54,978 bases of DNA from a virus (lineage: Duplodnaviria > Caudoviricetes): positions 1 to 54,978 of IMG/VR virus record IMGVR_UViG_3300044627_004059; one strand, written 5' to 3'. The position numbers and the translations under genes are program-made. Shown here piece after piece: positions 27,721 through 46,284 of this stretch; position 1 is the first letter of the stretch, and each line of letters starts with the position of its first letter. A model generated the notes under the pieces. The model was not told the origin of the DNA and ran no database searches. It worked only from the letters and a program-made list of their open reading frames with translations.

Positions 27721-28346
27721 AAATAAGTTATGCAATTACAGTATGTAATGAGTTCATTGAAATTCAACGACTCATTACATTTCTTCTAGAACGCAAAAGA
27801 CCACAAGATGAGATTGTAGTATTAGTTGATACGACAAAGGCAGTACCTGAGTTAATATCCTACCTAGCGCATTGCGAAAGACACCATGAAGGTCATATGA
27901 CAACATGGAAGGATGAATTTAAAGGTAATTTTGCAGATTGGAAAAATAAACTAACGTCATATTGCAACGGAGACTATATTTTTCAAATTGATGCCGATGA
28001 GATGCCATGCACTCCTATTATGGAAGCATTACCGGGTATATTAAGTGCAAATGATGGCGTTGATATGATATGGGTGCCAAGAGTTAACACGGTGCCTGAT
28101 ATAACCGTAGACCACATTAAAAAGTGGGGGTGGCGTGTTAATAGCGAGGGTTGGATTAATTGGCCGGATTGGCAAGGACGAATCTATAAGAATCATCCAT
28201 CAATTCAGTGGGAGAATAAGGTACACGAAAAGTTAACTGGCATTAAAACATTTGCACAGTTACCAATGGAAGAAGATTATTCTTTATATCATCCAAAAAC
28301 AATTGAACGTCAAGTAAAACAAAACGAATATTACGATACATTATAA
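27717..28346 (+). CDS. GT2-like glycosyltransferase
   Basis: ISYAITVCNE, FQIDADE, KVHE. Confidence 0.85.
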   Translation: MKISYAITVCNEFIEIQRLITFLLERKRPQDEIVVLVDTTKAVPELISYLAHCERHHEGHMTTWKDEFKGNFADWKNKLTSYCNGDYIFQIDADEMPCTPIMEALPGILSANDGVDMIWVPRVNTVPDITVDHIKKWGWRVNSEGWINWPDWQGRIYKNHPSIQWENKVHEKLTGIKTFAQLPMEEDYSLYHPKTIERQVKQNEYYDTL

Positions 28347-29782: not shown

Positions 29783-30489
29783 CAATATATACATCCATAT
29801 TTGGAGGATACGATAATTTAATTGAACATGAAATTAAATTTCCTGGCATTGATTTTATTTGTTTTTCAGATCGACAATTTGAATCAAAAACATGGAACGT
29901 AATACAATATCCTAAAATTTATTCGGATTCAAATAGAAATGCAAAAAAATTTAAAATACTTCCGCATCGATATTTAAAAGAATATGATTATAGTATATGG
30001 ATTGACGGAAATATGATAGTTAAAGAAAATCCAATTGAATTAATAAATTTATATTTATCTGATTCAAATGTAGCATTTTTTAGTCATGCTAATAATGTAT
30101 TAGATTCAAGAAATTGTATATATCAAGAAGCTCAATATATTTTAGATATAGGTCATAAAAATTATCAACAACGTCCGGATAGAGGAAATCTTTGTTATAA
30201 AGATAATCCTGCTTTAATTACGAAACAAATGGAAAACTATATACATGCTGGATATCCTTCAAATAATGGATTAATAACTGGAATGGTTATTGCGAGACGT
30301 CACAACGAAACAGACTGTATACAAGCTATGGAAGATTGGTGGACGGAGATTTGCTACAATTCTAAACGAGATCAATTAAGTTTTAATTATTGTGCATGGA
30401 AAAATAATTTAAAATTTAATTACATACCAGGAGATTCTCGAGACAATATCTTTTTTAAGAATTTAGGAAAACATATAGGAAAACAATAA
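29767..30489 (+). CDS. GT-A glycosyltransferase (DUF616/TOD1-like)
   Basis: YTSIFGGYD, KILPH, WIDGN, RDQLSFNY. Confidence 0.8.
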   Translation: MSSKIAIYTSIFGGYDNLIEHEIKFPGIDFICFSDRQFESKTWNVIQYPKIYSDSNRNAKKFKILPHRYLKEYDYSIWIDGNMIVKENPIELINLYLSDSNVAFFSHANNVLDSRNCIYQEAQYILDIGHKNYQQRPDRGNLCYKDNPALITKQMENYIHAGYPSNNGLITGMVIARRHNETDCIQAMEDWWTEICYNSKRDQLSFNYCAWKNNLKFNYIPGDSRDNIFFKNLGKHIGKQ

Positions 30490-30499
30490 TAAAAATAAT

Positions 30500-31210
30500 A
30501 TGATACAAATAGAACAATTAATTAAAACATATCATGAAGATGATATGGGCGGACATGATGTTAATATATTACATATGTCTGAAATACACACGAATTTCGT
30601 TCAGCCTGATTTGAACAAATTTACGTATAATCCAAATGATGATAACGATCAATCTGAATGGTATACAAAACAAAATTTTAATTACGATAATGCTAGAAAG
30701 GAAGAACATAGATTACGTAAATTTAGAATTTTTCATACGTATATGAAAAAGTATAATTGCAAATCTGTTTTAGACGTAGGGTTCGGTAGCGGATATTATA
30801 CTTGGAATTCTGCTATTAATGGATATGATACATTAGGAGCTGACTTTGAAAATGGTGCATATTATACTATGAAAAATATGTTAGAGACTAGTAATATTAA
30901 AAATTTAAGATTGTATAGTTTAAATTCAAATAGTATAGATAATTTAAATGAAACATTCGATGCAGTACTATCTATAGAAGTATTAGAACATATTTTAGAT
31001 CCTATGCCTTTACATGAAAGTCAAATTAAATTATGTAATAAGGTATTTTTTCTTGAAGAGTATTGTGGAGATCGTACAGTCACGGGACATATCGCACCCG
31101 AAGCAGCAAAAAAGCAAATTGTTGAAATGTGTTATGATTATGGTTTTGTAGAAGTACCGATGACATATGGATATCCTCCTCAAATATTTATTAAAAAAGA
31201 ATTACTGTAA
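30500..31210 (+). CDS. Class I SAM-dependent methyltransferase
   Basis: VLDVGFGSG, FDAVLSIEVLEH. Confidence 0.85.
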   Translation: MIQIEQLIKTYHEDDMGGHDVNILHMSEIHTNFVQPDLNKFTYNPNDDNDQSEWYTKQNFNYDNARKEEHRLRKFRIFHTYMKKYNCKSVLDVGFGSGYYTWNSAINGYDTLGADFENGAYYTMKNMLETSNIKNLRLYSLNSNSIDNLNETFDAVLSIEVLEHILDPMPLHESQIKLCNKVFFLEEYCGDRTVTGHIAPEAAKKQIVEMCYDYGFVEVPMTYGYPPQIFIKKELL

Positions 31211-32016
31211 TGAAAAATATAGTTTTTATACCTTTTATTAAACGAGAAGATTCATTTACAACAAGATCTGGTATAGGTAAAGCGGGTCGTACTGACGGAT
31301 ATGAATATGGAATTGATTCATGGAAACAATGGTGTAAAAAACACGATTGCGAATTAGTTATAATGGATCAACTACTTATGCCAGAATCTGAAATGTTAAT
31401 AACTTGGCAACGTTGGTGTGTATTAGATATATTAGAACATAATGAAATTGAATATGACCAAGTTTTAGTAGTAGATGCCGATTCAATTGTACACCCAGAT
31501 TGTCCTAATTTTTTCGAATTAACTGATAATAAATTTTCAAGTCCGTTAACGGATGGAGATTATGAATGGGTATGTCGCGCCATTAATGGATATTCTAAAA
31601 TGTTTTTTAATAAAGAATATTGTTTGCCATCATATGAATTTTTTATGACTGGTTTCGTAATCGTTAATAAAACACATAAAGAATTTTTATCCAAAGTAAC
31701 AAATTGGTATTTAGAAAATAAAGATGCGGTTAAACAATCATATGATATTTTATTAACTGGTAGTGATATTGCTTTAATGAATTGTTTACGTAAAGAATTT
31801 GATATCGAATTAAATATACTTCCTAGAGAATACGGAGTAATGGATTTACATCGTAAAAATTTATTGTATGTATCGAACCAATGTTGGTGGAAAGACGATT
31901 TAACTAATTTATACAATTCCGGATGGGTATATCAATTTAATGCAATACCACAAAACGAACTAGGAAGAACTAGAGCATATTTTATGCAACGTATATACAA
32001 TGATTTATATAAATAA
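31210..32016 (+). CDS. GT-A glycosyltransferase (GT8/GT34-like)
   Basis: SWKQWC, VVDAD (DxD), P..F, TGF pattern. Confidence 0.7.
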   Translation: MKNIVFIPFIKREDSFTTRSGIGKAGRTDGYEYGIDSWKQWCKKHDCELVIMDQLLMPESEMLITWQRWCVLDILEHNEIEYDQVLVVDADSIVHPDCPNFFELTDNKFSSPLTDGDYEWVCRAINGYSKMFFNKEYCLPSYEFFMTGFVIVNKTHKEFLSKVTNWYLENKDAVKQSYDILLTGSDIALMNCLRKEFDIELNILPREYGVMDLHRKNLLYVSNQCWWKDDLTNLYNSGWVYQFNAIPQNELGRTRAYFMQRIYNDLYK

Positions 32017-32017
32017 T

Positions 32018-32046
32018 TTGGTTAACTGTAAAAAAATGATTATATT
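32018..32046 (+). promoter_or_regulatory. Class 1 promoter-like motif (TTG-N20-TATATT) upstream of the NDP-sugar tailoring genes
   Basis: Recurrent motif; ATG lies 6 nt downstream. Confidence 0.62.
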
Positions 32047-32052
32047 CATAAT

Positions 32053-33231
32053 ATGAAAAAAAATAAAATAGAATTTTTAAATTTAGGCAAACAGCCAATA
32101 GCTAATAAATTTATTGAAAAAACAGATATTGATAATGAGTTTTTCTACAATTTATCAGTTGGCTTTGATAATGAAACCAATTTAATAACTCATATGGAAT
32201 ATGTAGATCCGCCATTAATGTTTAACGAAACTTATGCATACAGAGGGTCTATGTCTAAAACAATGCAAACACATTTTAAAAATTTTAGTAAAATGTTAAA
32301 TTTAGACTCAAATAGTAAAGTATTAGAAATTGGAAGTAATGATGGAGTTTTTTTAAAAAATTGGAATCCGTTAACAACATTTGCAGTTGAACCATGTAGT
32401 AATTTTGCAAAAGAAACAAATGACATGGGATACAAAACATATTCAGAATTCTGGACTACTAACTTAGCTAATCGTATTAAATCGGAACATGGTACCATGG
32501 ATTTAATTTTTGCGGCTAATTGTATATGTCATATTCCGGATTTAGATGAAACGTTTAAAGCGGTACATACTTTATTATCCGATACAGGCTTGTTTATTTT
32601 TGAAGACCCATCGTTAGCTCAAATGATAAACACTAATTCATATGATCAGATATATGACGAACATCCTCATATTTTTTCAGTAATAGCATTACGTAATTTA
32701 CTATCAAGAAATGGTTTAACAATTGTTAAAGTAGATAATATACCCGTACATGGCGGTTCTAATCGTATATACGTAATGAAATCTGAATTTGCAAATGTAG
32801 ATTCTAGTGTAGAAAATAATATTCAATTTGAATTAATGTTAGGGTTAGATAAGTTAGAAACGTTTCAAAATTTCGCAAACAGGGTAGCTCAATCAAAAAC
32901 AGATTTAATTGAATTGTTAACTAGATGTAAACGATTAGGTAAAAAAATTATTAGTTATGGAGCAACTTCAAAATCTACTACCGTATTTAATTATTGCGAA
33001 ATCGATACATCATTAATTGATTATGTAATTGATACTACTCCAGAAAAAATAAGAAAATTAACTCCCGGATCGCATATTCCAATTAAAAATTCAAACGGAA
33101 TTGATTCCGATGTTGATGTAGTATATTTAGGTGCATGGAATTTTGCAACAGAAATTATGAATAAAGAATCAGAATTCATCGAACGCGGTGGTAAATTCAT
33201 TACACACGTTCCAATAGTAAAATTTATATAA
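32053..33231 (+). CDS. NDP-hexose C-methyltransferase family protein
   Basis: LGKQPIAN, EIGSNDG, YDEH, HGGS, YGATSK, AWNF. Confidence 0.88.
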   Translation: MKKNKIEFLNLGKQPIANKFIEKTDIDNEFFYNLSVGFDNETNLITHMEYVDPPLMFNETYAYRGSMSKTMQTHFKNFSKMLNLDSNSKVLEIGSNDGVFLKNWNPLTTFAVEPCSNFAKETNDMGYKTYSEFWTTNLANRIKSEHGTMDLIFAANCICHIPDLDETFKAVHTLLSDTGLFIFEDPSLAQMINTNSYDQIYDEHPHIFSVIALRNLLSRNGLTIVKVDNIPVHGGSNRIYVMKSEFANVDSSVENNIQFELMLGLDKLETFQNFANRVAQSKTDLIELLTRCKRLGKKIISYGATSKSTTVFNYCEIDTSLIDYVIDTTPEKIRKLTPGSHIPIKNSNGIDSDVDVVYLGAWNFATEIMNKESEFIERGGKFITHVPIVKFI

Positions 33232-33241
33232 TATAGAATAT

Positions 33242-33625
33242 ATGACATTTCATGAAGATGACAGAGCGCAACGATTTCTGGATGTTTTTAACAACATTGA
33301 CGGGCAGATTAACGTGTCATATGTTAATTCTATAGAACATATAGTAGCGTGGCATAAACATAAAATACAAACAGATTATTGGATTTGTTTAAAAGGATCG
33401 TTTAAGGTTGGATTAGCATATGAAGATGGCACAGTTAAATGGGAATATCTGTCAGATAAAAATCCAAGAGTATTAGAAATTACACCAGGTATTTATCATG
33501 GATATAAAGCATTAGAACCAGGATCGATTTTATTATATTATTTAACAAAAAAATATAATCCCGATGACGAAATGCGCGCTGCGGTCGGTGCATTCAATGA
33601 AAGTTGGGATACTATAAATAAATAA
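33242..33625 (+). CDS. RmlC-like cupin (NDP-4-keto-sugar 3,5-epimerase)
   Basis: DDR, AWHKH, PGIYHGY. Confidence 0.75.
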   Translation: MTFHEDDRAQRFLDVFNNIDGQINVSYVNSIEHIVAWHKHKIQTDYWICLKGSFKVGLAYEDGTVKWEYLSDKNPRVLEITPGIYHGYKALEPGSILLYYLTKKYNPDDEMRAAVGAFNESWDTINK

Positions 33626-33628
33626 CTT

Positions 33629-34042
33629 ATGGTTACATTAAATAACGTTTTAACATTTAGGCTGCGACAATACGTCGAACAGAATGGTAATTTATTGCCG
33701 ATAGAATTCGATAAGACTATTCCATTTAAACCTAAACGTACTTTTTTTGTATGTAATGTCCCTGATCAACAAATACGTGGTTGTCATGCACATTATAAAA
33801 CAAAACAATTAATAATATGTCTTAACGGTGAAATAACAGTTAAATTACATGATGGTAATAATGCACGATCATATGTATTAACAAGTGGCGATGCTATTTA
33901 CATACCAAATTTAATTTGGGACGAACAGATGTATCATTCAGTAGATACCGTGTTAGTATCGTTATGTAGTACACACTACGATACGGATGATTATATTCAT
34001 AATTTCGACGAGTTTGTAAAATTAAAAAAAAATAAAAAATGA
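33629..34042 (+). CDS. FdtA/QdtA-like NDP-sugar 3,4-ketoisomerase
   Basis: GNL..IE, IPF..KR.F, RGCHAH, DDYI. Confidence 0.85.
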   Translation: MVTLNNVLTFRLRQYVEQNGNLLPIEFDKTIPFKPKRTFFVCNVPDQQIRGCHAHYKTKQLIICLNGEITVKLHDGNNARSYVLTSGDAIYIPNLIWDEQMYHSVDTVLVSLCSTHYDTDDYIHNFDEFVKLKKNKK

Positions 34043-34058
34043 ATTTTTTAGAAGAATT

Positions 34059-34700
34059 ATGAATAAATGTAAAATACCGCATCTATCAATAGATAATTTT
34101 ATTCCATCAAATGCATTAGTACGAGCAGCTGCTAATAGTTTCCATCACGGTATGGATTGGGTTAAGTATGATGCTAGTGATAATCAAATACAATATTGTT
34201 CTAAGCTCGGCAGAGAAAACTTACCACTGGCTGCAGCACTTTGTTTGGATTACATAGCAACTAATTTTGACCCTAATACAGCTTTTAACGGTCTGACAAC
34301 AAATGCATTTCCAGACTTAACACATTATGGGGGAGGAATGATGATAACTCCTAATTCAAATAATGAGGGTGGATTCTTAGGAATGCATATAGATGCAGAA
34401 GTCCATGGACTGCATAACGATTGGAAACGAGAATATAGTGCTATACTTTGTTTATCTGAAGAATTTGACGAATCTTTTGATCTTAGACTACATGATGGCG
34501 TAAACCATACTCGAGTACCTTATAAGTTTAATACATTAAATATTTTTAAGTGTAGTGAATATTCATGGCACGGATTTCCAGAAATAACAAACGGCATGGA
34601 TCGTAAAACGTTAGGAGTTATGTTTTGGTCTAAAATGACTGATGAAGATAAAAAGAGAGAGAAGATAAAAGCTAGATTTAATAATAATTTACAGTTTTAG
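34059..34700 (+). CDS. 2OG-Fe(II) oxygenase
   Basis: GGG, HID (HxD), SWHG, RK facial triad plus Arg pattern. Confidence 0.8.
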   Translation: MNKCKIPHLSIDNFIPSNALVRAAANSFHHGMDWVKYDASDNQIQYCSKLGRENLPLAAALCLDYIATNFDPNTAFNGLTTNAFPDLTHYGGGMMITPNSNNEGGFLGMHIDAEVHGLHNDWKREYSAILCLSEEFDESFDLRLHDGVNHTRVPYKFNTLNIFKCSEYSWHGFPEITNGMDRKTLGVMFWSKMTDEDKKREKIKARFNNNLQF

Positions 34701-34710
34701 TATTACTACA

Positions 34711-35418
34711 ATGAAAATTCTTATCTCAGGTGGCGACGGTAAGTTTGCAAAAGAATTGCAAATTCAGAATTCGAATTTTGAATTAATTTTATTGTCTAAA
34801 ACCAAAATGGATATTACTAATTTATCATCGATAAATAATGCTATTGATAAGTATAAGCCTGATGTCTTTATTCATACAGCTGCATTATCTCGTCCAATGA
34901 TAGTACATGATACGAATCCAGATAAAAGTATTCAGTTAAATATCATAGGTACTTCTAATTGTGTATTAGCATGCATGCAGCATAACATTAAAATAGTATA
35001 CATCTCTACCGATTTTATTTATCCTGGGATTAATGGAAATTACAAAGAAACTGATCCGATATATCCCGTCAATAAGTATGCTTGGTCAAAGTTAGGCGGA
35101 GAATGTTCTTGTATGTTGTATGAAAATTCTTTAATATTACGTATAGCAATGTTTGTTAAACCATTTCCGCACGATAAAGCATTTGTAGATAGTTTTAAAA
35201 GTCCTTTATGGAATGATGAAGCTGCAAAAATACTACTAAGATTAATTGAATTAAATGCTACCGGAATTTATAATATCGGAGGAGAAAAAAAATCAATATA
35301 TGATTTTGTAATACGAGAAAATTTCAATATATTAAAAGAAAATAAAGCTAATATCAAAGAAAACGTGCCAACAGATGTTAGTATGAATCTTACTAAATTA
35401 AATGATATTTTGTTATGA
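34711..35418 (+). CDS. RmlD-like NDP-4-keto-sugar reductase
   Basis: ILISGGDG, HTAA, YISTD, YAWSK. Confidence 0.85.
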   Translation: MKILISGGDGKFAKELQIQNSNFELILLSKTKMDITNLSSINNAIDKYKPDVFIHTAALSRPMIVHDTNPDKSIQLNIIGTSNCVLACMQHNIKIVYISTDFIYPGINGNYKETDPIYPVNKYAWSKLGGECSCMLYENSLILRIAMFVKPFPHDKAFVDSFKSPLWNDEAAKILLRLIELNATGIYNIGGEKKSIYDFVIRENFNILKENKANIKENVPTDVSMNLTKLNDILL

Positions 35419-36338
35419 TACAATTATTTAACATTCCAAATTATACAATCGATACTTCGAAGTTTTCGCATTATTTGCATGGCACTAATGTAACAGATTT
35501 TGAACAACGTTTTGCAGAATATGTAGGTGCAAAATATGCAGTTAGCGTTAATAGTGCAACAAATGCTATTTTTTTAATGTTTTTAAACAAAAACTTAACT
35601 ATTAATGTTCCGTCAATGATTCCTCCGGTTGTACTAAATGCGTTAATTACATCTGGAAATAAAATTAATTTTATAGACGATACTGAGTGGATTGGCGGAT
35701 CGTATACATTGCATAAATTTGAAGATTATAAAATTATTGATTCTGCGCAACGAGTAGATGCAAATCAGTTTAAAATAGAAGCTAATGAAAATGATTTAAT
35801 GTTTTTTAGTTTTTATCCTACAAAACCAGTAGGCAGTACGGATGGTGGTATTATAGTTAGTAACGATAAACAAAAAATCGATTATTTACGAATGTTATCA
35901 TTTAACGGAATGTCGTTTGCTGAAAACAATTGGGATAGGAAAATATGTATGCCTGGTTATAAGTTTTATATGAATAGTATTCAAGCATATATTGCAAATG
36001 AAAATTTATCTAAATTAGAACATAAAAAACAACGATTATTTGAAGTACGACATATTTATAATAAAGAATTAGGTTATAATAATACAAGCGAACATTTGTA
36101 TAGAATTAATGTTAAAGATCGCGATGAGTTTATAAAACATATGAAATCCGTCGGTATATTATGTGGTATTCATTACGAATCGCAACATTGCAATGATGTT
36201 TATACTAAATCTGTAAAATTTATTTGTCCAAATTCTGAATTAGAATCATTAACTACCGTCAGTATTCCATTTCACGAATCTTTAACTAAAAACGAAGTAA
36301 TCCACATTATTAAAAATATTAAGTATGCGACTATGTGA
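35415..36338 (+). CDS. DegT/DnrJ/EryC1/StrS sugar aminotransferase
   Basis: NSAT, DSAQ, SFYPTKP (PLP Lys), DGG, SIPFH. Confidence 0.9.
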   Translation: MIQLFNIPNYTIDTSKFSHYLHGTNVTDFEQRFAEYVGAKYAVSVNSATNAIFLMFLNKNLTINVPSMIPPVVLNALITSGNKINFIDDTEWIGGSYTLHKFEDYKIIDSAQRVDANQFKIEANENDLMFFSFYPTKPVGSTDGGIIVSNDKQKIDYLRMLSFNGMSFAENNWDRKICMPGYKFYMNSIQAYIANENLSKLEHKKQRLFEVRHIYNKELGYNNTSEHLYRINVKDRDEFIKHMKSVGILCGIHYESQHCNDVYTKSVKFICPNSELESLTTVSIPFHESLTKNEVIHIIKNIKYATM

Positions 36339-36855
36339 ACAACATAAATATCAAGAAAATGAACGATGTATTCATGAATTTGTAAAAACACATCAACCTA
36401 AAACAATTGTTGAATTAGGCTACGGCTCTGGTGCATTAACGGTTGCTATGAGTTATGCTTGTAGAGAATACAATGGTTTGATTTTTTCTTATGATATGAT
36501 ATCTCCAAATTTAGCTATTTCTAGATTAACGGAACGAAATTTATATGATTTATGTACTATAACTCAAGGAAACGTTTACAAAACGTATTTAGTTGACCCA
36601 ATACCATTTGATATGATATTGATAGATATTGATAATACATGGGAACTGATATTTGATGTTGTTATTAACAATGAATTTATCAATAAACAAATTAAACAAG
36701 GTTCTAAAGTGATTATCGAAGGCGGTGCTGATTTACATCCTCGAATAAATAAAACTACATTGAAACATTTTCATAATACAATTGGAAAAGACGTATTCGA
36801 ATTTACACACATATCAGGCCCTCGAACTAGTTTATCTATTTTAAATTTATTATGA
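36325..36855 (+). CDS. SAM-dependent O-methyltransferase-like protein
   Basis: PKTIVELGYGSG, FDMILIDID. Confidence 0.75.
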   Translation: MRLCEQHKYQENERCIHEFVKTHQPKTIVELGYGSGALTVAMSYACREYNGLIFSYDMISPNLAISRLTERNLYDLCTITQGNVYKTYLVDPIPFDMILIDIDNTWELIFDVVINNEFINKQIKQGSKVIIEGGADLHPRINKTTLKHFHNTIGKDVFEFTHISGPRTSLSILNLL

Positions 36856-37718
36856 AAAAATTAGCAGTTATAGCCTCCGGCTGGCATTATGCATATCAAT
36901 TTTATGAAGGCATCGCTTCGCAGAGTATTCCAGCTGATTTACATGTTGATTTATTTGTTATTAGTCATAGAAAACCTGATGATTTTAATACGATAAATGA
37001 AAAAGAATACATCAGACAGTATAACGGCGATAATTTACTTTATAAATTAGATAAAGAGTTGTATAAAAAAGTTATTACGAAACAAGATTTATCTAATATG
37101 GGTTGGAAATATCTCGAAAAGCCTAATACTATCGGAGATATGGAAGTTTTTAACCAATGGTCAGAAGATTATGATTTTAAAGATTACGATATATTTCTTA
37201 TCACGCACGATGATAATTTAATTTTATCTGACCAACTGTTCGTTGATATTTTTAGTAATGAAATTAAATTATTTAAACCTATATACGAATCTAGATATGG
37301 ATCTACGGGACATCAATTTAAAACCCATATGGTACAAAATGAATTGGATTGGATGTTTTTAGATAATGGATATTCCGAATATATTCCTAAAGCATATACT
37401 CCACGTGGTTCTTTTAGTTTTTATACAAAAGAACTTATAAATTTATTACCAGAACATAAATTTCCAATGGATAATATATCATTAACTAGAGTCGGGTTAA
37501 CTAATTCGGGTGAATACAAAGATTTAACCGAATGGAATACAAATGCTGGAAATTTTAGAAATTTTTTATATAAAGATTCGTTAGTAGAAAAAACTCGATG
37601 GTTATCGGAAACTAAACGAGTTAGTAAATATTGTATCGAAGGCGAACGAGGATTCATTCATAATAACAATAGCAATGAATTTCATTATGAAAACGCCGTT
37701 AAAAACATTATATCATGA
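36852..37718 (+). CDS. Putative GT-A glycosyltransferase
   Basis: LITHDD (DxD-like), RGSF; cluster context. Confidence 0.55.
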   Translation: MKKLAVIASGWHYAYQFYEGIASQSIPADLHVDLFVISHRKPDDFNTINEKEYIRQYNGDNLLYKLDKELYKKVITKQDLSNMGWKYLEKPNTIGDMEVFNQWSEDYDFKDYDIFLITHDDNLILSDQLFVDIFSNEIKLFKPIYESRYGSTGHQFKTHMVQNELDWMFLDNGYSEYIPKAYTPRGSFSFYTKELINLLPEHKFPMDNISLTRVGLTNSGEYKDLTEWNTNAGNFRNFLYKDSLVEKTRWLSETKRVSKYCIEGERGFIHNNNSNEFHYENAVKNIIS

Positions 37719-38446
37719 TAACAAATCCTATAATACATGACAGACACATAGTTAAAAACTATTTTGAAAATATGGTTTTTAATAATATACACAAAAATAA
37801 ATTTATTACGCCAAAAGATCTTACAATTGTAACATGTAGAAACTTAGGTACTATGGAAGATAGAATTATCAATTCTTTATCTGGATATGAACATAAATCA
37901 ATATTAGAATGTAATTTAGAATATTTAGGAATTAATGATTTAGTTGTATTGACTGACAATCGATTGCCATGGCGAAATACTTTTAAAATTGAAATGATTT
38001 ATAATTATCTTCAATCTGGTAAGTGTACTACAAAATACATTATGTATTGCGATGCAATTGATGTAATTTTTATTGACGATCCGAATCGCGTAATAGATAT
38101 TTTTAAAGCACATGAATGTAAAATGTTATTCATGTCAACGCCAGCTAAACATGGTTATGCACTTATGCCACAAATAAAACAATGGGCAGATAAACTTAGT
38201 ACTAGATATTTAAATTCTGGCGTATGGATAGGTGAAACTGATTTCGTATACGATGTATTTCATGAAGCACGTAACTATATAACTCCACATGGTGCTACAA
38301 TGGATAAGTTATCCGAATATTGGAATTCGAAACCAGAAAATTTTCCAATTGGGTCTGATGATCAAGATATACTAAGATTTATTCAACCTAAATTTCATCC
38401 AGAACTTAAAGTTGATTATGATAATATAATAGCATATAGAAATTAA
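37715..38446 (+). CDS. GT-A glycosyltransferase (PLOD-GT-like)
   Basis: KI, YCDAID, YLNSGVWIG, DDQ. Confidence 0.72.
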   Translation: MITNPIIHDRHIVKNYFENMVFNNIHKNKFITPKDLTIVTCRNLGTMEDRIINSLSGYEHKSILECNLEYLGINDLVVLTDNRLPWRNTFKIEMIYNYLQSGKCTTKYIMYCDAIDVIFIDDPNRVIDIFKAHECKMLFMSTPAKHGYALMPQIKQWADKLSTRYLNSGVWIGETDFVYDVFHEARNYITPHGATMDKLSEYWNSKPENFPIGSDDQDILRFIQPKFHPELKVDYDNIIAYRN

Positions 38447-38474
38447 AAAAAAATTTTTTTATTTTAAAAAATAA

Positions 38475-39413
38475 ATGAAAATAGCATTTTTTACAGAAAT
38501 GGGATTTTCTGGTAAAATACCAAGAACCCATGATAACATGAGAACGGAATTTGCATGGATGTGTGCGTTGAATTCTGATCATATTAACATAAATCACGCA
38601 TTGACTGAATTTGAATATATAGAAGCACCAGTTTATGATTTAGGTATAGTTATTATTCCTAAACATGTTAAAGAATTTGATATCAATAAATTAAAAACGA
38701 TTTGTAATAAAATTGCAGTAATGCAAGAAGGTCCAAATTGGCTTTGGCAAGACTATTCATTAGAACAACAAATTTGGTATTTCAATACATTAACATCTGC
38801 AGATATTATTTTTACACACAATGAAACGGATCGAAAATATTATCAAGGATTAACGACTCATCCGGATGTACGCGTATTGCCTAGTTTGATGATTGAAGAT
38901 TCTATAGGAGAATTAAAAATTGAAGAACGCCAAGATGTTATTATAGGTGGAAATTTTGTGTCTTGGTATGGTGGATTCGATTCTATGATTATAGCTAAAG
39001 AACTAGGAGATGTAGTATATGCGCCATCAATGGGTCGAAAACAACCCCTCGAAGACCAATTGGTTACGCATCTTCCATATATGAATTGGAAACAATGGAT
39101 CCATGAATTAAATAAGTTTAAATATGGTATTCATTTAATGCGAACTCACGCTGCCGGTACATTTGCATTGAATTGTTCGTATTTAGGAATTCCGTGTATA
39201 GGATACAAAGGATTAGATACTCAAGAACAACTTCATCCGGATTTAACAGTTGAATTAGGAGACTTAACATCTGCTAGAAAACTTGCGGCAAAACTTAGGA
39301 CGAATGAAGAATTTTATTTATATTGTAGTAATATAACAAAAAGATTATACGAAGAAAAATATCATGAAAATAAGTTTTATACAACCTTCACGGAACAATT
39401 TAAAGTATCTTAA
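38475..39413 (+). CDS. Putative GT-B glycosyltransferase
   Basis: MKIAFF start and AGTFALNCSYLGIPCIG C-terminal pattern. Confidence 0.6.
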   Translation: MKIAFFTEMGFSGKIPRTHDNMRTEFAWMCALNSDHININHALTEFEYIEAPVYDLGIVIIPKHVKEFDINKLKTICNKIAVMQEGPNWLWQDYSLEQQIWYFNTLTSADIIFTHNETDRKYYQGLTTHPDVRVLPSLMIEDSIGELKIEERQDVIIGGNFVSWYGGFDSMIIAKELGDVVYAPSMGRKQPLEDQLVTHLPYMNWKQWIHELNKFKYGIHLMRTHAAGTFALNCSYLGIPCIGYKGLDTQEQLHPDLTVELGDLTSARKLAAKLRTNEEFYLYCSNITKRLYEEKYHENKFYTTFTEQFKVS

Positions 39414-40572
39414 ATGGTCTTACGACGCAATCAGAAAAAATCAAGGCAATCATGAAGTAGAAATTTGCGTTGCAGATGATTTCAGCGATAAAGATGGTAC
39501 TTGGGATTGGTGTGTAGAAATGATGGAAAAAGATCCATTATTCAGAGCAATTCGTAATGAAGGTCCAGCTCGCCTAGGACATACAATATTGTATGATCGT
39601 TTAGTTAATGAAGTAGCATCATTCGATATTTGTATGATATATCATGCGGATATGTATCTATGTCCTGGAGCTTTGGATGCGATTGAAAAACATATTGGTT
39701 CCAAAAAAATTGTATCATTAACACGAATCGAACCTCCATTACATCCACCTGGACCAGAAAAGGTATTATTAAATTGTGGAGTTGAACCGGAACAATTTAA
39801 TGAAGATAAATTACTACATCATTTAGAAATGGAGTATGATATCGTATACGATGATAAAACAACTGAAGGTATATTTGCTCCATGGGCATTCATGAAATAC
39901 GATTTCCAAGAGATAGGAGGACACGATCCATTATATGCTCCGCAGTCAAAGGAAGATTCGGATATATTCAATCGATTTCAATTAAATGGAGTTTCATTCA
40001 TACAAACATGGGAAGGGTTTGTTTATCATATGACTTGCAGAGGTAGTAGATTTAATCCTACGTTAACAACCCCAGGACAAAATTCTCCGGAATGGGAAGC
40101 TCAGAATATAAGATCAACTCGAAACTTTATTCGTAAATGGGGACACTTTTGTAAACACGATACATTAATGAAACCTATAATACCGCCAAAATATAACATA
40201 GCATTTGTTGTTAAAAATTGCAATTCATATTTATTAGAAGCATTAGAACCATGGTGTGATAGAATATACATAGAAGATGATATGCAAGTATTAACGACGC
40301 ATTACATTGATAAGGAACAATCTAACACGGCATTTGACTTAACAAAACGAGTATTTTGTATCGGATACAACGATCCAAATGCAGAAAATGATATCGTTAT
40401 TGAAATCGATAGAAATCGGTTTTCGGAACAAGATTTTCAATACATTCAAATGATGTCAGAAATCATACAAAGTTCCGGAGAAGTAGGAGACTTTAAATTA
40501 GAAAATTTAAAAGTAACAATTAATCATTTAGAAACATACGAAAAAGATTTAATAATATGCGAAATGCAATAG
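39364..40572 (+). CDS. GT2 glycosyltransferase
   Basis: ISFIQP, ADDFSD.DGT, HADM, GGHD, EDSD. Confidence 0.85.
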   Translation: MKISFIQPSRNNLKYLKWSYDAIRKNQGNHEVEICVADDFSDKDGTWDWCVEMMEKDPLFRAIRNEGPARLGHTILYDRLVNEVASFDICMIYHADMYLCPGALDAIEKHIGSKKIVSLTRIEPPLHPPGPEKVLLNCGVEPEQFNEDKLLHHLEMEYDIVYDDKTTEGIFAPWAFMKYDFQEIGGHDPLYAPQSKEDSDIFNRFQLNGVSFIQTWEGFVYHMTCRGSRFNPTLTTPGQNSPEWEAQNIRSTRNFIRKWGHFCKHDTLMKPIIPPKYNIAFVVKNCNSYLLEALEPWCDRIYIEDDMQVLTTHYIDKEQSNTAFDLTKRVFCIGYNDPNAENDIVIEIDRNRFSEQDFQYIQMMSEIIQSSGEVGDFKLENLKVTINHLETYEKDLIICEMQ

Positions 40573-41465
40573 TAACAGGCGGTGCTGGATTTATAGGATC
40601 TACCATGACCGATCGTTTAATAAACGAAGGATACCATGTATTAGTAATTGATAATTTATCAACCGGCAAAGCTGAGAACGTTAATGATTTAGCTGAATTT
40701 CATAGAAAAGATTTAGCAGAAATTGATATACATGAATTAACGGTATTATTCGGAGGAGCGGATGTAGTTTTTCATTTTGCAGCATTAGCACGCGTACAAC
40801 CTTCAATTGAAGATCCGATTACATTTAATACAGCGAATGTACAAGGTACTTTAAAAGTATTATTAGCAGCACATCGTGCAAAAGTTAGACGTGTAGTTTA
40901 CAGTGCATCATCTTCTGCATATGGGAATACTGTTATTTTTCCGACTCCAGAAACCCATGGCACCAATCCGTTGTCCCCATATGGTTTACAAAAATTAATT
41001 GGCGAACAATATTGTAAAATGTTTAGCGAAGTATATGGATTAGATACGGTATCATTGCGTTATTTTAATGTTTATGGCGAACGTATGTCTACCGAAGGTG
41101 CTTATTGTTTGGTTATGGGAATATTTGCAAAACAATTGTTAAACGGGCAACCATTAACAATTACCAATGATGGCAATCAACGAAGAGACTTTACTTATGT
41201 AGATGATGTAGTTGAAGCCAATTGGTTAGCTGCCAATTATTCGGAATCATTAAATGGAGAAATTTTCAACATCGGAAATGGAAGTAACTATTCAGTTAAT
41301 GAAGTAGCAGATATGATGGGTGGAGAAAAAACTTACGGCAATCCTCGTATAGAACCATTTGCAACATTAGCTGATAATTCTAAGGCAAAAGAAATTTTAG
41401 GATGGATTCCAAAAGGACACTTACCTACCTGGATTGAAAAATATAAAGAACAACTAGGTCTTTAA
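40557..41465 (+). CDS. NDP-sugar epimerase/dehydratase (UDP-glucose/GlcNAc 4-epimerase-like)
   Basis: TGGAGFIGS, SASSSAYG, YGLQK, LRYFNVYG, RDFTYVDD. Confidence 0.93.
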   Translation: MRNAIVTGGAGFIGSTMTDRLINEGYHVLVIDNLSTGKAENVNDLAEFHRKDLAEIDIHELTVLFGGADVVFHFAALARVQPSIEDPITFNTANVQGTLKVLLAAHRAKVRRVVYSASSSAYGNTVIFPTPETHGTNPLSPYGLQKLIGEQYCKMFSEVYGLDTVSLRYFNVYGERMSTEGAYCLVMGIFAKQLLNGQPLTITNDGNQRRDFTYVDDVVEANWLAANYSESLNGEIFNIGNGSNYSVNEVADMMGGEKTYGNPRIEPFATLADNSKAKEILGWIPKGHLPTWIEKYKEQLGL

Positions 41466-41541: not shown

Positions 41542-41814
41542 ATGGCATTTCAAAACTTTAAACAAATCTTTAAAAACTCTAACGATTACAACGAAAAAAC
41601 TATTATCGGATTCATGTCTTTTGCTGTAATGGCAATTGCTATGATAGTTGATTTAGTTACCGGCGCATTTGGAAACGAACTTCGTTTAAATGAATACATT
41701 TACAATTCATTTGTAATTGTTACATTGGGAAGTTTAGGTATAGCTGGTCTAGAAAAATTTGCTAAAGGCGGAGGAGAAACTAAACAAAATAATAATGACG
41801 AAGAAATAGGTTAA
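41542..41814 (+). CDS. Small 2-TM membrane protein, holin-like
   Basis: Two hydrophobic helices and a charged C-tail; lies upstream of the endolysin. Confidence 0.55.
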   Translation: MAFQNFKQIFKNSNDYNEKTIIGFMSFAVMAIAMIVDLVTGAFGNELRLNEYIYNSFVIVTLGSLGIAGLEKFAKGGGETKQNNNDEEIG

Positions 41815-41843: not shown

Positions 41844-42962
41844 ATGAAAAACCTATCAAAAGAAGAGTTATTAAGCAGGATAGAAGCAATTAATAGGAGT
41901 AATGCTCTTATTTATTTCGATCTTAATGGTATTATATTAGGCGTTAATGACATTTTTTTGGAAGCAATGGGTTATGGTATAGGCAATCACGAAGAACTTA
42001 TCGGTAAACATCATAGCATTTTTGTATGTGAAGATTATTCAAAATCATATGAGTATGAAAAGTTTTGGGATATCTTAAGAAGCGGAAAGTATTATCAAGG
42101 TGAGTTTGAACGACGAAGAAAAGATGGAAGTCTTATCAATCTGCAAGCAACTTATAACCCTATTTTTGATGAAAGTGGTAAAATAACCAAAATAATGAAA
42201 GTTGCGACTGACATTAGTGCAATTGTCAATAGTAAAAAACAAATAGATGCAATCAACAGAAGTACAGCTCTTATTAGTTTTAACACAGATGGTTTTATAA
42301 CAGAGGTTAATTCTATATTTTTAGAAACGATGGGATACAAAGCCAATGAAAAAGCTAAAGTTATTGGTAAGCATCACAGTGTTTTTGTAAGCTATGAGTA
42401 TTCTAAATCTGACGAGTATGCCAAGTTTTGGGAAAATCTAAGAAAGGGTAAATACTTTGATGGAGTATTTGAAAGAAGAAAAGTAGATGGCTCTATTGTA
42501 TATCTACAAGCATCTTATAACCCCGTACTTGATAGTAAAGGGAATATTACAGATGTAGTTAAGATTGCAACTGATATAACAGAAGCTGTAAATAATAAAA
42601 CAAAAATAGAGGCTCTTACAAAGAATTTACAGGCAGAACTAGACAATTCACAAAAGCTAAAGAATGCAATAGAATTAGAAAAGGATGCAGCTTTGAATGA
42701 CTTAGATGTAATGATGAAAAAAAGTCAGAGTGAGCTAATAAAAATCATTGTAAAAGTTGCCTTGTCTGTTATAGTTGGAGTTGGGCTTGTAACAACACTA
42801 TTATATTGGGTTGCAATTATAACAGAGCAAGACACGCAAATAATAGGATCAACTTGGAGTAATATGTTTAGTGTATTACTAACAAACGCATTTTCAATAG
42901 TAGGTACGATCATGGGTATCAAGTATGCTACTCATGAGCCTGGAAGTAAACAAAAAAAATAA
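41844..42962 (+). CDS. Tandem PAS-PAS sensor domains, coiled coil and two C-terminal TM helices
   Basis: Two 121-aa repeats (AINRS...N.IFL..MGY...IGKHHS.FV...FW..L..G...G.F.R...DGS...LQA.YNP..D..G.IT...K.ATDI) starting at 41886 and 42249. Confidence 0.88.
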   Translation: MKNLSKEELLSRIEAINRSNALIYFDLNGIILGVNDIFLEAMGYGIGNHEELIGKHHSIFVCEDYSKSYEYEKFWDILRSGKYYQGEFERRRKDGSLINLQATYNPIFDESGKITKIMKVATDISAIVNSKKQIDAINRSTALISFNTDGFITEVNSIFLETMGYKANEKAKVIGKHHSVFVSYEYSKSDEYAKFWENLRKGKYFDGVFERRKVDGSIVYLQASYNPVLDSKGNITDVVKIATDITEAVNNKTKIEALTKNLQAELDNSQKLKNAIELEKDAALNDLDVMMKKSQSELIKIIVKVALSVIVGVGLVTTLLYWVAIITEQDTQIIGSTWSNMFSVLLTNAFSIVGTIMGIKYATHEPGSKQKK

Positions 42963-42993
42963 ACATGGTAATAACAAAGAAAAAAGATTGATT

Positions 42994-43797
42994 ATGGTAC
43001 TAAAAAGAGGTGACAACAACGAACTAGTTAAAAAAGTTCAAGCAGTTTTAGGAGTAGAACAAGTAGGTAATTTTGGACCTAAAACGGAAGAAGCAGTTAA
43101 AGCGTGGCAAACTAAAAATGGTTTAACTCCCGATGGAGTAGTTGGACCAGCTACGTTAGCTAAAATGGGAATAGTAGTAGAAACGAAAGCTGCAGCTCCT
43201 GCAAAAGCTACTAAGTTTACTAGAGAACAAATCGAGACTGCAATCAAAGCTAAAGGATATAAATGGTTCGGTGATAAAGATTATGAATTGAATATCATCG
43301 GAATACGAAATGCAGATACCGGACAAAAAGTAACAAATTTGTTTGATGATTGGTTAACGTTATCTTATAAACTAGAAGGAGTTTGGAAATTTCATATATG
43401 GCCAGCAACTACCGATCCTGGAACGAAAGGTGTTATGCAATATGGTAACAAAGCTGGAGTTGCTAGACTAGTAGAAGGACAATATATCGGGTCACACATC
43501 ATGAGACTTCATGCCGGCAAATACGAAGCTTTAGGACAAAATAAACCAGTTAAAGTATTTAGAGATCCAAACAAAGATATGAAGTACGATGAAACCAAAA
43601 TCCAAGAAGGAGTATTTGGTATCAATATTCATAAAGCCGGCGCGGATTCGACATATGTAGAAAATTGGTCAGAAGGATGTCAAGTATTTAAACGTTCAGC
43701 AGACTTCGAAGAGTTTATGGCTATTTGTCGCAAAGCTAAAGCAGCACATGGAAATACATTTAACTATACATTGTTAAAATCAACAGATATTAAATAA
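42994..43797 (+). CDS. Probable endolysin: PG-binding domain plus YkuD/L,D-transpeptidase-like domain
   Basis: FGPKTEEAVKAWQ..NGL..DGVVGP.T (PG_binding_1); NIH...WSEGCQV. Start moved to ATG 42994. Confidence 0.78.
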   Translation: MVLKRGDNNELVKKVQAVLGVEQVGNFGPKTEEAVKAWQTKNGLTPDGVVGPATLAKMGIVVETKAAAPAKATKFTREQIETAIKAKGYKWFGDKDYELNIIGIRNADTGQKVTNLFDDWLTLSYKLEGVWKFHIWPATTDPGTKGVMQYGNKAGVARLVEGQYIGSHIMRLHAGKYEALGQNKPVKVFRDPNKDMKYDETKIQEGVFGINIHKAGADSTYVENWSEGCQVFKRSADFEEFMAICRKAKAAHGNTFNYTLLKSTDIK

Positions 43798-44219
43798 TGA
43801 AAACAACAGTACTTGCAATATATTTTTCGTTATCGACTATGTTAACTTTTATTTGTACTTATTTCTTTAACCTAACAATGAATCATTATGATCAATACTT
43901 GGCATTGATTTCTGTAGTATTCATCGATGGTTTTTTTGGCGTGATTGCAGGAATAAAACGCGAAGGATTTCAAACTCGTAAAGCAATTAAAGTTTTAAAA
44001 ACAGCAGCAGTATGGTGTGCATTCTTAACAGTACTGTTGTCAGTTGAAGATGCATATAAAGGTACTGGTTGGTTAAGTGAAACTATATTGATACCTTTTA
44101 TTGTATTTCAAATCATGAGTGCATTAAAAAATGCATCGATGGCTGGATTTATTAAAGCAAAATTGTTGAATCAAATTCTAGATAAATTTGACGACCATAA
44201 AGGCGTACGAGATAAATAA
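43797..44219 (+). CDS. Phage holin family protein
   Basis: Multi-TM, ID.FFG...K and S.L.N pattern; TAATG-coupled to the endolysin. Confidence 0.7.
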   Translation: MKTTVLAIYFSLSTMLTFICTYFFNLTMNHYDQYLALISVVFIDGFFGVIAGIKREGFQTRKAIKVLKTAAVWCAFLTVLLSVEDAYKGTGWLSETILIPFIVFQIMSALKNASMAGFIKAKLLNQILDKFDDHKGVRDK

Positions 44220-44934: not shown

Positions 44935-46284
44935 ATGATCCAAGAATACATTACACAGAAAACACTTAATCCAAAGCTTTGGAGCAATGGTAAACTTCGT
45001 AAGAAACTTCGTGCTGGATTCTTAAAAATTGCCAATGAATTTTACAAGTTTCTAGATGTCGATGCAGCTGTAAAAGACATCATAATCATTGGTAGTAGTG
45101 CCAATTACAATTGGACAGAACATAGTGATATAGATTTGCATGTAGTTATTAATTACGGTCAAGTTGGAGACAATTTGCATTTGGTTAAAAATTACATGCA
45201 CGCTAAAAAAAGCATATGGAATGAAAATTATCCATTATCATTAAAAGGCATGAACATTGAATTGTATGCACAAGATGTTAACGAAAAACTACATTCTACA
45301 GTAGCATCTTATTCTTTGATGCAAAATAAATGGTTAACGAAACCAACGGCTGATATGATTTCAATTGATGATGCTATCATACAACAAAAGGCAGAACCGT
45401 ATGAATATGAAATTGATGAATTAAAAGATACAGACCCGCATATCGAAAAGAAAATACAAAGTCTTAAAACCAGACTACGTCATTTACGACAAACCGGATT
45501 AGATGCGGAAGGAGAATATTCTATAGAAAATATGGCGTATAAACATCTACGTAATAAAGGCTATTTAGAACGTTTAAACCGTCTTGAACAAAAGGTTACA
45601 ATGGGTCGCCTTTCTGTAGAAGAAGCTGTAAATGAATTCAATATACCCCAAATGATAGACAAAGGCAAGTCTCAAGTAAAAACTTTCGTGTCAGCCATGA
45701 AAAATGAAACTTTAGAGACAAAACACGCATTAAAAATGATTCTAGATCATTTAAATGGAGAAAAATTAACTCCCGAAGAATGGTCATGGGTTCGTGGCCA
45801 AATGAAAGATGTCGTTAAAATGCTAGGATTAACTACGATGGCAGTAGCTCCAGGAGGAAGTTTAGTAGCACTATTAGCAAAAGCACTTAAGGCCGATAAA
45901 TACATTTTGCCGTCTTCATTTCAAAAACAAGATGAAAAAGAAGTTACCGAATCTTTAGTAATGCACGTTACTGGTAAGAAAACTTTAGATACGGATGGGT
46001 GGGATGATATAATTAAAAAAACCGGGGCTGTTACAACGCATCGGGGACAATGGGATCACCCCGGTCAATGCACAATGATTCCTGGTAATCAAATTACAAT
46101 GAAGAACGTTGCATATCCAGTAATGGGAATAGATGACACCGGACACGCACAAATGATGCACCCGGAACAAGATTATGATTATCCCGGTACTAAAGTTTTT
46201 GAAATACCACATACAGCACAATGGCAAACTATGTTAATGCGGCTTCAAAATGTAATACGTAATGGAACAAACTATGCAAAGTAA
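44935..46284 (+). CDS. Modular protein: Pol-beta-type nucleotidyltransferase, LETM1-like helical domain and a C-terminal module
   Basis: GSSANYNW...SDIDLH...ELY; LTPEE...QMKD...PGGS...LPSSF; GQWDHPG...ITMKNV.YPV.G. Confidence 0.72.
   Translation: MIQEYITQKTLNPKLWSNGKLRKKLRAGFLKIANEFYKFLDVDAAVKDIIIIGSSANYNWTEHSDIDLHVVINYGQVGDNLHLVKNYMHAKKSIWNENYPLSLKGMNIELYAQDVNEKLHSTVASYSLMQNKWLTKPTADMISIDDAIIQQKAEPYEYEIDELKDTDPHIEKKIQSLKTRLRHLRQTGLDAEGEYSIENMAYKHLRNKGYLERLNRLEQKVTMGRLSVEEAVNEFNIPQMIDKGKSQVKTFVSAMKNETLETKHALKMILDHLNGEKLTPEEWSWVRGQMKDVVKMLGLTTMAVAPGGSLVALLAKALKADKYILPSSFQKQDEKEVTESLVMHVTGKKTLDTDGWDDIIKKTGAVTTHRGQWDHPGQCTMIPGNQITMKNVAYPVMGIDDTGHAQMMHPEQDYDYPGTKVFEIPHTAQWQTMLMRLQNVIRNGTNYAK

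Follow-up and report, generated by a model that had tools for sequence, protein, structure and literature searches.

A tandem-PAS sensor joined to a membrane hairpin beside a phage endolysin gene: probable product of a deletion in a phage two-component operon

Class II holins and pinholins, such as S21-68 of phage 21, have two membrane helices with both termini in the cytoplasm (N-in/C-in), a charged C-terminal tail and a second helix with a face of small residues. Lysis inhibition in phage T4 involves the holin T and the antiholins RI and RIII, of which RI senses in the periplasm. In bacteria, the LytSR two-component system controls the holin-like Cid/Lrg proteins and murein hydrolase activity, LytR being a DNA-binding protein that acts on transcription. 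The lysis timing of environmental phages is largely unknown outside a few model phages. One preprint mentions lysis inhibition (LIN) for T4 and N4 (bioRxiv 10.1101/2025.11.12.688109), and the agr genes of phage phiCDHM1 are reported to include a histidine kinase, a precedent for a phage-encoded sensor kinase (PMC3901668). Here we describe a gene carried by a 54,978-nucleotide (nt) stretch of viral DNA, IMG/VR record IMGVR_UViG_3300044627_004059 (the window, meaning this whole stretch), which adjoins an endolysin gene and encodes a tandem-PAS sensor, a coiled coil and a two-helix membrane hairpin in one chain of 372 amino acids (aa).

Fusion origin of the sensor-hairpin gene

The two ends of this protein resemble two different genes of a single phage operon, in which a histidine kinase (HK) is followed by a response regulator (RR) and by a small membrane protein that we call the short form (SF). 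At the related viral locus L091, residues 1–257 of a 474-aa PAS-PAS-HATPase_c kinase align with aa 1–256 of the window protein at 48% identity over 260 aa, collinear from Met1, and the SF standing two genes downstream of that kinase is 73% identical in its aa 110–194 to aa 280–364 of the window protein. Among 80 phage kinase proteins, 55 match the window protein at E ≤ 1e-5. A profile of the SF family (alignment A2) covers about aa 240–366 with its positions 63–192 of 196, and the homology of coil and hairpin includes the near-invariant motif of the second transmembrane (TM) helix, TM2. The N-domain typical of the SF (LEGNILK..RRKRL) is missing from the window protein, and the PAS-PAS pair stands in its place. 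L091 also shares with the window the catalytic domain of the endolysin (71%; the gene lies beside the kinase) and the holin (61%; two genes past the SF).

Since aa 1–256 match the kinase sensor and aa 280–364 match the SF, we conclude that the window gene is a deletion fusion across an HK-RR-SF operon. A deletion of about 1.4 kb, beginning after the D-V-T motif that ends the second PAS domain (PAS2) of the kinase and running through the kinase core, the RR and the first 60–100 or so codons of the SF, would yield a gene of this form. The ancestral operon, of a type widespread in uncultured T4-like phages, would have encoded an HK with a variable sensor, then a receiver-only RR, then the SF membrane protein; the PAS-PAS sensor of the kinase would have been joined at its D-I-T motif to the coiled coil of the SF, with the kinase core, the RR and the SF N-domain removed. 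HATPase_c and Response_reg domains are indeed absent from the window and from two other records with the fused form (95% and 91% estimated completeness), and two SF records searched as positive controls gave HATPase_c in both and Response_reg in one. Each of these five records has exactly one hairpin module. We hold the fusion origin and the signalling architecture of the gene with high confidence.

A second fusion, P0131 (360 aa), joins a GAF domain (E 2.5e-17) to the coil and hairpin. It belongs to a 7-member cluster on contigs of up to 17 kb and was found on three viral contigs of 38–182 kb. Its aa 11–189 match the GAF sensor carried by one phage kinase at 60% identity, and its aa 194–360 match the SF (from aa 60 of the latter) of the phage with that same kinase at 57%; a separate HK, RR or SF is absent from all three P0131 loci, and a GH19-like endolysin is close by in two of them. 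A quick tree built from 107 columns of 86 hairpin modules, P0130 left out, has many open forks. In it the PAS-PAS fusions are a single clade (support 100) that lies within the SFs beside L147 and L091, and the GAF fusion falls in a different SF group (support 87). The GAF-hairpin fusion arose separately from the PAS-PAS fusion.

Pfam finds solely PAS families in the window protein (PAS_3, E 3.1e-25 and 88.7 bits against a cut-off of 25.6; PAS_9, 6.2e-21; PAS, 4.6e-17; PAS_4, 9.6e-12), each of the four covering two stretches of the chain, and the sole NCBIfam family past its cut-off is 'sensory_box' (TIGR00229; 104.7 bits vs 22.9). No NCBIfam equivalog cut-off is reached, and a PHROG scan returned no family at E ≤ 0.01. 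Residues 12–130 repeat as residues 133–251, with a period of 121 aa and 57% identity over 119 aa (E 1e-51), which bears out the two 121-aa PAS repeats described in an earlier note on this DNA, and DIT-like motifs stand at aa 123 and aa 244. In an AlphaFold2 (AF2) model (78-row alignment; mean predicted local distance difference test score, pLDDT, 84.5), one unbroken helix runs from PAS2 into the first membrane helix, TM1 (aa 246–326), and is followed by a loop (327–331) and a second helix (332–363); hydropathy gives TM-like segments beginning at aa 295 and aa 341. This agrees with the coiled coil and the two C-terminal TM helices that the note had described. Lys residues ahead of TM1, an acidic loop and a K-rich tail together predict, by their charge, an N-in/C-in hairpin, with the PAS pair in the cytoplasm.

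As the earlier note had also said, there is no output domain of a familiar kind: kinase, methyl-accepting chemotaxis protein (MCP) and GGDEF families are without a Pfam match in the protein. Neither MCPsignal nor the pair DHp (H-box) and HATPase_c is found by Pfam or NCBIfam, which places the protein outside the MCPs of BdlA type as well as outside the histidine kinases. With the sensor and the hairpin as its putative output in one chain, and no HK or receiver (REC) domain, it has the make-up of a one-component signalling protein.

The note had taken the gene for a host PAS-PAS sensor of the BdlA type, captured and grafted on a holin- or antiholin-like module, or else acting as a decoy for host signalling. 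The enrichment of AAG and GAG codons on which it remarked is real: a fraction of 0.37 of the Glu codons are GAG (10 of 27; z 3.7, the highest of 58 genes), and 0.30 of the Lys codons are AAG (11 of 37; fifth of 58). The C-terminal part, which derives from the phage, shows the bias too (GAG 0.50, AAG 0.42), and it thus extends over both sensor and hairpin. GC (0.317) as well as GC at third codon positions (GC3; 0.226 vs a mean of 0.223) are ordinary for this phage. There is therefore no compositional sign of recent import. PAS families are common to bacterial sensors, and one source even names relatives of the protein 'methyl-accepting chemotaxis protein', but the closest full-length match of the PAS-PAS part is the phage kinase sensor described above. 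The C-terminus, a coiled coil with two membrane helices, offers no MCP signalling domain and no domain able to dock on host kinases or on CheA/CheW. Direct capture from a host is hardly probable on this evidence, and nothing in the analysis supports a decoy. Of the interpretation, the tandem-PAS sensor, the membrane module that it heads and the place in a lysis cassette stand; the host origin and the free-standing holin nature of the module do not.

Among solved structures, the PAS pair is closest in sequence to MmoS (3ewk, 6e-12), Aer (8dik) and NifL (2gj3), over a range of 6e-12 to 7e-6, and in fold to MmoS, DosP, NifL, LOV-HK and FixL. Proteins of the MmoS, Aer, NifL, DosP, LOV-kinase and FixL types are redox, oxygen or light sensors, and bacterial redox/O2 PAS sensors bind FAD or heme.

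The hairpin family and its operon

A phmmer search with aa 245–372 against 1.84 billion representatives retrieved 101 proteins. Most of these, of 130–230 aa, carry the same coil and hairpin behind a different N-terminus (LEGNILK...RRKRLEITKQ) and are SFs, which consist of a small N-domain of about 60 aa, a heptad-phased coiled coil and the two-helix hairpin. They belong to no Pfam, PHROG, NCBIfam or PADLOC family, and phrog_1544 (unknown function) weakly matches some members, at best with 3e-5. The ESM Atlas clusters of the SF are 100% viral and nameless, and their automatic label, 'GLE1-like', is probably a coiled-coil artefact. In a Foldseek search of an SF model against BFVD there was one significant match, an uncharacterised member of the family; a row labelled 'Holin' in the same search has E 3.1 and is noise. 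From these searches, the hairpin family appears to be virus-only and previously undescribed. Hairpin records of 96–141 aa look like fragments, frameshifts or deletion variants. Frameshifts or faulty assembly may explain three aberrant short relatives (P0172, P0147 and P0151), in which an internal deletion joins the N-terminus to TM2 or either terminus carries an unrelated extension.

SFs are present on at least 568 viral contigs, and the figures for SF loci given here refer to the best 80 of these. When the open reading frames (ORFs) within four genes of the SF were clustered, a protein of about 438 aa was found in 74 of the 80 loci, a protein of about 144 aa in 76 and an SF gene call in 79. 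Of the 79 loci in which an SF gene was called, 73 hold all three in the order HK, RR, SF, and in 56 of 76 loci the RR stop and the SF start have 1 or 4 nt in common. Pfam assigns PAS and HATPase_c to the longer protein, the HK, and Response_reg alone to the shorter one, the RR. Both keep characteristic residues: D9, D10, D61, S92–94 and K114 of the RR (acidic pocket, phospho-acceptor Asp, Ser and Lys) are invariant in 51 sequences, with a mean column identity of 81%, and the H, N, G1 and G2 boxes of the kinase are conserved in 53. The HK sensors are diverse (235–718 aa, 0–2 membrane segments, 0–2 PAS or GAF; loci L082–L161), and despite this variety the kinase core, the receiver and TM2 of the hairpin stay conserved. 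Complex prediction for the receiver (alignment A3) with the SF N-domain (A2, aa 1–80) scored 0.21 and 0.19 against a mark of 0.32, from which nothing follows about their binding in either direction.

The idea that the membrane part might also exist alone, as a small holin, did not hold: where the PAS domains are absent, it occurs in a protein of 180–230 aa with the N-domain and coiled coil, after a phage kinase and receiver. This gene order suggests that the membrane part is no free-standing holin but belongs to a phage two-component pathway, as its output module.

The coil joins input and hairpin in a fixed register. Counted between two conserved residues, an Arg where the long helix begins and a Leu just before TM1, the SF coil measures 46, 53, 60, 67, 74, 81 or 88 aa, a length of 4 modulo 7 in 65 of 65 sequences. 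Because coil lengths change in heptad steps only, the angular phase between input and hairpin is kept while the length drifts, as would be expected of a signal-transmitting coiled coil. In 114 fused relatives the distance from DIT to DLD, which contains the same pre-TM1 Leu, is 43 aa (three further ones scored 164, the motif pattern having missed the second D-I-T), and in a separate single-PAS fusion it is 36 aa, one heptad below 43.

Conservation is highest in TM2, where 14 of 23 columns are at least 90% conserved in a 68-sequence family alignment; N-domain, coil, TM1, loop and tail have 0–5 such columns each. One face of TM2 bears Asn, Thr, Ser and Gly. Across 63 unique pairs of fused genes with dS about 1, dN/dS is 0.066 for PAS1, 0.058 for PAS2, 0.079 for the coil and 0.055 for the hairpin, and selection acts on every part of the gene.

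These values bear on the possibility that the hairpin is a membrane anchor alone, from which a tethered PAS sensor would hold a soluble partner at the membrane or let it go. Cytoplasmic regulators are often tethered to the membrane, and the hairpin matches no channel or holin family above threshold, as an anchor would allow. In most proteins, however, an anchor is the part that is conserved least, and here TM2 is the most conserved part of the family, the heptad phase of the coil relative to the hairpin is kept throughout, and three inputs (N-domain, PAS-PAS and GAF) have been exchanged on the same hairpin. A mere anchor is very unlikely in our judgement. Given the conservation of TM2 and the low dN/dS of the hairpin, we take the hairpin to be an effector, and its conservation together with the exchange of inputs suggests that it is the output of the protein.

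We favour, with slightly better than even confidence, the reading that the window gene encodes a one-component, signal-gated membrane effector which arose by deletion in a phage signalling operon and acts in lysis timing. The tandem cytoplasmic PAS domains would bind a signal, and a conformational change would pass down the helix of aa 246–326 into TM1. The packing or the oligomeric state of the hairpin, whose TM2 is nearly invariant and rich in small and polar residues, would thereby be reset. At the cytoplasmic membrane, the hairpin would work as a gated holin, an antiholin or a depolarising element, and the moment of lysis would be set by the state of the host. The ligand, the direction of the effect, the topology and the lysis role are putative elements of this scheme.

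Distribution and link to lysis genes

A word-indexed protein search with the 372-aa query gave 4077 matches, the best 120 of which are 85–96% identical and 367–379 aa long. The fused form is present on at least 220 viral contigs in IMG/VR, and figures for fused loci refer to the best 80 of these matches. In them the gene is 82–92% identical to that of the window, and the neighbours, at 30–89% identity, change their order from locus to locus. In a set of 185,579 species with one genome each, four contigs carry the module; they come from metagenome-assembled genomes (MAGs) labelled Saprospira, Flavobacteriales, Ignavibacteria and Saccharibacteria (L166–L169). On all four, the fused gene (72–87% identical) adjoins an endolysin-like gene, and for this reason they are most simply phage contigs that were binned with bacteria. 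The architecture is thus not one that is common in bacterial chromosomes away from lysis genes, which the earlier note had named as the finding that would speak against its proposal. In 50,697 GenBank phage records, tblastn with the low-complexity filter on found no match to the hairpin part or to an SF, and the whole protein gave three weak matches to PAS only. Profile searches found neither an SF nor HATPase_c in Microcystis phage Mel-JY01 or Flavobacterium phage immuto, the nearest cultured phages that could be named, and thus no cultured phage among those checked has the system. The literature searched, including passages of PMC7824862, describes neither the hairpin family nor any two-component system of a phage with a tie to lysis, and exact phrases for phage- or virus-encoded kinases or two-component systems matched no papers.

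The earlier note had wondered whether the architecture recurs next to endolysins, and it does. With endolysin queries of four Pfam-checked types (GH19-like, Peptidase_M15_3, Phage_lysozyme and the window type), an endolysin-like gene was found within 681 nt of the fused gene in 76 of 80 loci, with a median gap of 103 nt, downstream in 62 and upstream in 14. All four types take part: GH19-like in 33 loci, T4-lysozyme-like in 33, the window (phrog_3000) type in 6 and M15 in 4. Because the endolysin type has been exchanged repeatedly beside a nearly constant sensor gene, we regard the arrangement as a maintained cassette. At L091, the HK-RR-SF triplet itself sits between endolysin and holin. Among 80 loci of each kind, 21 of the fused and 11 of the SF type have a Phage_holin_4_1-like gene. 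The endolysin slot beside the conserved sensor gene (L002–L081), with its four unrelated catalytic types, looks like a case of repeated non-orthologous replacement.

Several observations weigh against the reading that we favour. The link to endolysins is weaker at SF loci, where 41 of 80 have an endolysin-like gene within 5 kb on either side and 24 within 1.5 kb; where at least 3 kb is available on both sides, the count is 22 of 46. These SF figures may be underestimates, the query set being limited to four types. The loci come from related phages, and the synteny counts are not independent events. The cassette already holds a family-supported holin, and the hairpin family reaches holin profiles with sub-threshold matches only (Phage_holin_9 in 6 of 68 members, best E 0.005; Phage_holin_3_6 in one member, E 0.062). 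TM2 is nearly invariant while the neighbouring holins diverge (55–77% identity, often undetected); this makes a holin an unlikely direct partner of TM2, and a host target or self-assembly fits equally well. On the sensor side, the PAS residues at the positions of the flavin region of MmoS and Aer differ (IFVCED/VFVSYE vs IVNSGYH/MVRHPDM). Hairpin variants headed by a single PAS, a zinc finger, SOUL or a glycosyltransferase also exist, as singletons on contigs of 0.8–1.6 kb, and three of the sensor-hairpin variants of this sort may be assembly artefacts.

Some of these points fit a rival with the same fusion origin, in which the hairpin would act on a conserved host membrane function, for reprogramming of the host or superinfection exclusion, and the adjacency to lysis genes would be historical. 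Candidate targets would be the proton-motive force or respiration, a transporter, or envelope or glycan export. An invariant TM2 across phages with differing holins and endolysins suggests such a host target, or self-assembly, and an endolysin-like gene is near only about half of the SF loci; in the window, moreover, about 17 kb of glycosyltransferase and epimerase genes stand immediately before the cassette. The tight adjacency of fused genes to endolysins of four types, in both orientations, and the place of the L091 triplet between endolysin and holin argue the other way. So does a PADLOC scan, which matched no defence family to the window protein, the SF or the RR and gave a single weak match (E 0.0023), to the phage kinase. 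A target of this kind outside lysis is possible, though we think it unlikely. A role of the window gene in lysis timing, as suggested by gene position, we would put somewhat short of an even chance.

It is tempting to extend the lysis reading to the abundant uncultured T4-like phages of lakes. In these, a kinase with interchangeable sensors (membrane loops, PAS or GAF) would signal through a CheY-like receiver to a virus-only hairpin and so time lysis by the redox, energy or other state of the host. The PAS-PAS- and GAF-hairpin genes would then be natural short-circuits that mark the hairpin as the output, and the hairpin would be a new class of signal-gated holin, antiholin or depolariser. 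The pathway would be the functional equivalent of lysis inhibition in T4, assembled from other components. We offer this wider proposal as a tentative one, which is more doubtful than not.

The window is a fragment of a T4-like phage from lake water, 55 kb of a virus record with an estimated completeness of 32%. Its ORFs of at least 120 aa are all on the plus strand, and it encodes a UvsX-like recombinase, a DnaB-like helicase, a ribonucleotide reductase and a family-B polymerase, whose nearest cultured relative is that of Microcystis phage Mel-JY01 (43.6%), with T4-like cyanophages next (about 31%). Near-identical DNA is present in 18 lake-water DNA runs beyond two possible source runs; no RNA run is among those listed, which has no bearing on expression. 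The cassette runs from the glycosyltransferase/epimerase cluster through a 90-aa membrane protein, the PAS gene, the endolysin, a holin of the Phage_holin_4_1 family and two small membrane proteins to a nucleotidyltransferase-like gene (Table 1).

Table 1. Features of the sensor-hairpin gene and its neighbours in the window
Feature	Position	Strand	Basis or remark
PAS-PAS, coiled coil and two-helix membrane hairpin gene, 372 aa	41844..42962	+	ATG start
PAS domain 1, aa 21–123	41904..42212	+	Pfam; AF2 pLDDT about 90
PAS domain 2, aa 142–244	42267..42575	+	Pfam; AF2 pLDDT about 90; D-I-T motif aa 244–246 at end
Coiled-coil/signalling helix, aa 246–294, runs into TM1	42579..42725	+	AF2
Membrane helix 1 (TM1), aa 295–326	42726..42821	+	hydropathy; AF2
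Membrane helix 2 (TM2), aa 332–363	42837..42932	+	AF2; hydropathy
Kinase-sensor-derived part, aa 1–256	41844..42611	+	similarity to L091 kinase
SF-homologous part (coil and hairpin)	42561..42938	+	alignment A2 profile, E 2.1e-47
90-aa small membrane protein, 'up90'	41542..41814	+	adjoins PAS gene upstream
Endolysin	42925..43797	+	PG_binding_1 1.3e-13 and catalytic domain of phrog_3000/endolysin PHROG type
Holin, Phage_holin_4_1	43797..44219	+	Pfam 2.6e-6 (27.9 bits, cut-off 22.2); phrog_199 holin
Two small membrane proteins, 104 aa and 126 aa	44222..44919	+	hydropathy
Promoter-like word ATATTTATATTAAA	41477..41490	+	56 nt ahead of 90-aa gene; ATATTTATAnTAAA at 41477

The sensor gene had been placed between a holin-like gene and the endolysin. 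The endolysin is there, but the upstream 90-aa protein matches no Pfam or PHROG holin family, nor any other family of Pfam, PHROG, PADLOC or NCBIfam, and the sole family-supported holin of the cassette stands after the endolysin. In 53 of 80 loci, a relative of the 90-aa protein (30–89% identity) stands no more than 200 nt from the fused gene, upstream in 15 and downstream in 38. The 90-aa protein shows no homology to the hairpin (hhalign probability 1.5%). Compared with the families of the four neighbouring membrane proteins, the hairpin family has hhalign probabilities of 0.3–2.1%, that is, no detectable homology. The 104-aa and 126-aa proteins match no Pfam, PHROG, PADLOC or NCBIfam family, and relatives of the latter are present in fused loci as well as in SF loci. 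The longest endolysin ORF runs 38 nt into the end of the sensor gene (42925–42994 region); since the similarity to the PG-binding protein of L091 starts only at the internal Met at 42994, this Met may be the true start.

The word ATATTTATAnTAAA occurs at 659, 6854, 13183, 24916, 36052, 41477, 46971 and 54390, with all eight copies on the plus strand. For ATATTTATA, too, eight of eight copies in the window are on the plus strand, all with the extension nTAAA and mostly between a stop and the next start. The number of ATATTTATAnTAAA copies is not above chance (at least 8 copies in 17 of 100 shuffles); from the placement of its copies, the word is likely to represent a phage promoter class. The T4 late-promoter word TATAAATA is not enriched in the window (15 copies vs 15 expected).

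Upstream, positions 24500–41465 hold the glycosyltransferase and sugar-epimerase genes, with low GC (0.27–0.30) at 29–38 kb. Part of one gene, at about 39853–40397, is 71% identical in DNA to a glycosyltransferase gene of Flavobacterium phage immuto, and this stretch together with two of the four MAG labels hints at a possible Bacteroidota host. Downstream, a 449-aa gene (44935–46284), which is kept after the cassette in several related loci, has a weak nucleotidyltransferase match (PF01909, 2.8e-4) and a strong one to phrog_36119, of unknown function (3.9e-42).

Comparison with known systems

If the link to lysis is true, phage-encoded sensing of host physiology feeds directly into the lysis machinery, and the repertoire of one- and two-component signalling gains a new output domain. 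The module is testable, having a recognisable sensor, a linker locked in heptad phase and a small, highly conserved membrane output, and the two natural fusions point to the hairpin as the output. A heptad-phased linker with swappable sensors would also make an attractive compact, engineerable membrane switch.

The nearest relatives are the SF family and the PAS-PAS histidine kinases of uncultured phages. With the former, the window protein shares the coil and two-helix hairpin, and it differs in having PAS-PAS for the N-domain of about 60 aa and in standing in a genome without the preceding kinase and receiver. The kinases have a homologous sensor half, which runs collinear with that of the window protein from the first residue and shares the D-(I/V)-T that ends PAS2. 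The kinases have DHp and HATPase_c and act by phosphotransfer, whereas the window protein has neither and its output would be the membrane hairpin. MmoS, Aer, NifL and DosP resemble the PAS pair in sequence or fold, with different residues in the cofactor region and a different output domain.

With pinholins of the S21-68 type, compared here by their generally known features, the hairpin shares the predicted N-in/C-in topology, Gly, Ser and Thr residues about four apart in TM2, and a position in a lysis cassette. The two TM helices and the K-rich tail would suit a class II holin, but such holins are of about 65–150 aa, and the 372-aa window protein has some 290 aa of sensor and coil ahead of the hairpin, in a cytoplasmic extension, and no significant family match. 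As in T4 lysis inhibition, a T4-like phage would adjust the timing of lysis to a signal through accessory proteins; the PHROG scan does not place the window protein with RI or RIII, and its sensor is a predicted cytoplasmic PAS pair where that of RI is periplasmic. The cassette of phiCDHM1 is of the agr quorum-sensing type and is not known to include a receiver and hairpin module or a fusion form (PMC3901668). LytSR with Cid/Lrg is alike in that a two-component system is linked to holin-like membrane proteins. The phage RR differs from LytR in being receiver-only and in abutting the gene for the membrane protein, and in the window the relay would be bypassed, with sensor and hairpin united in one protein.

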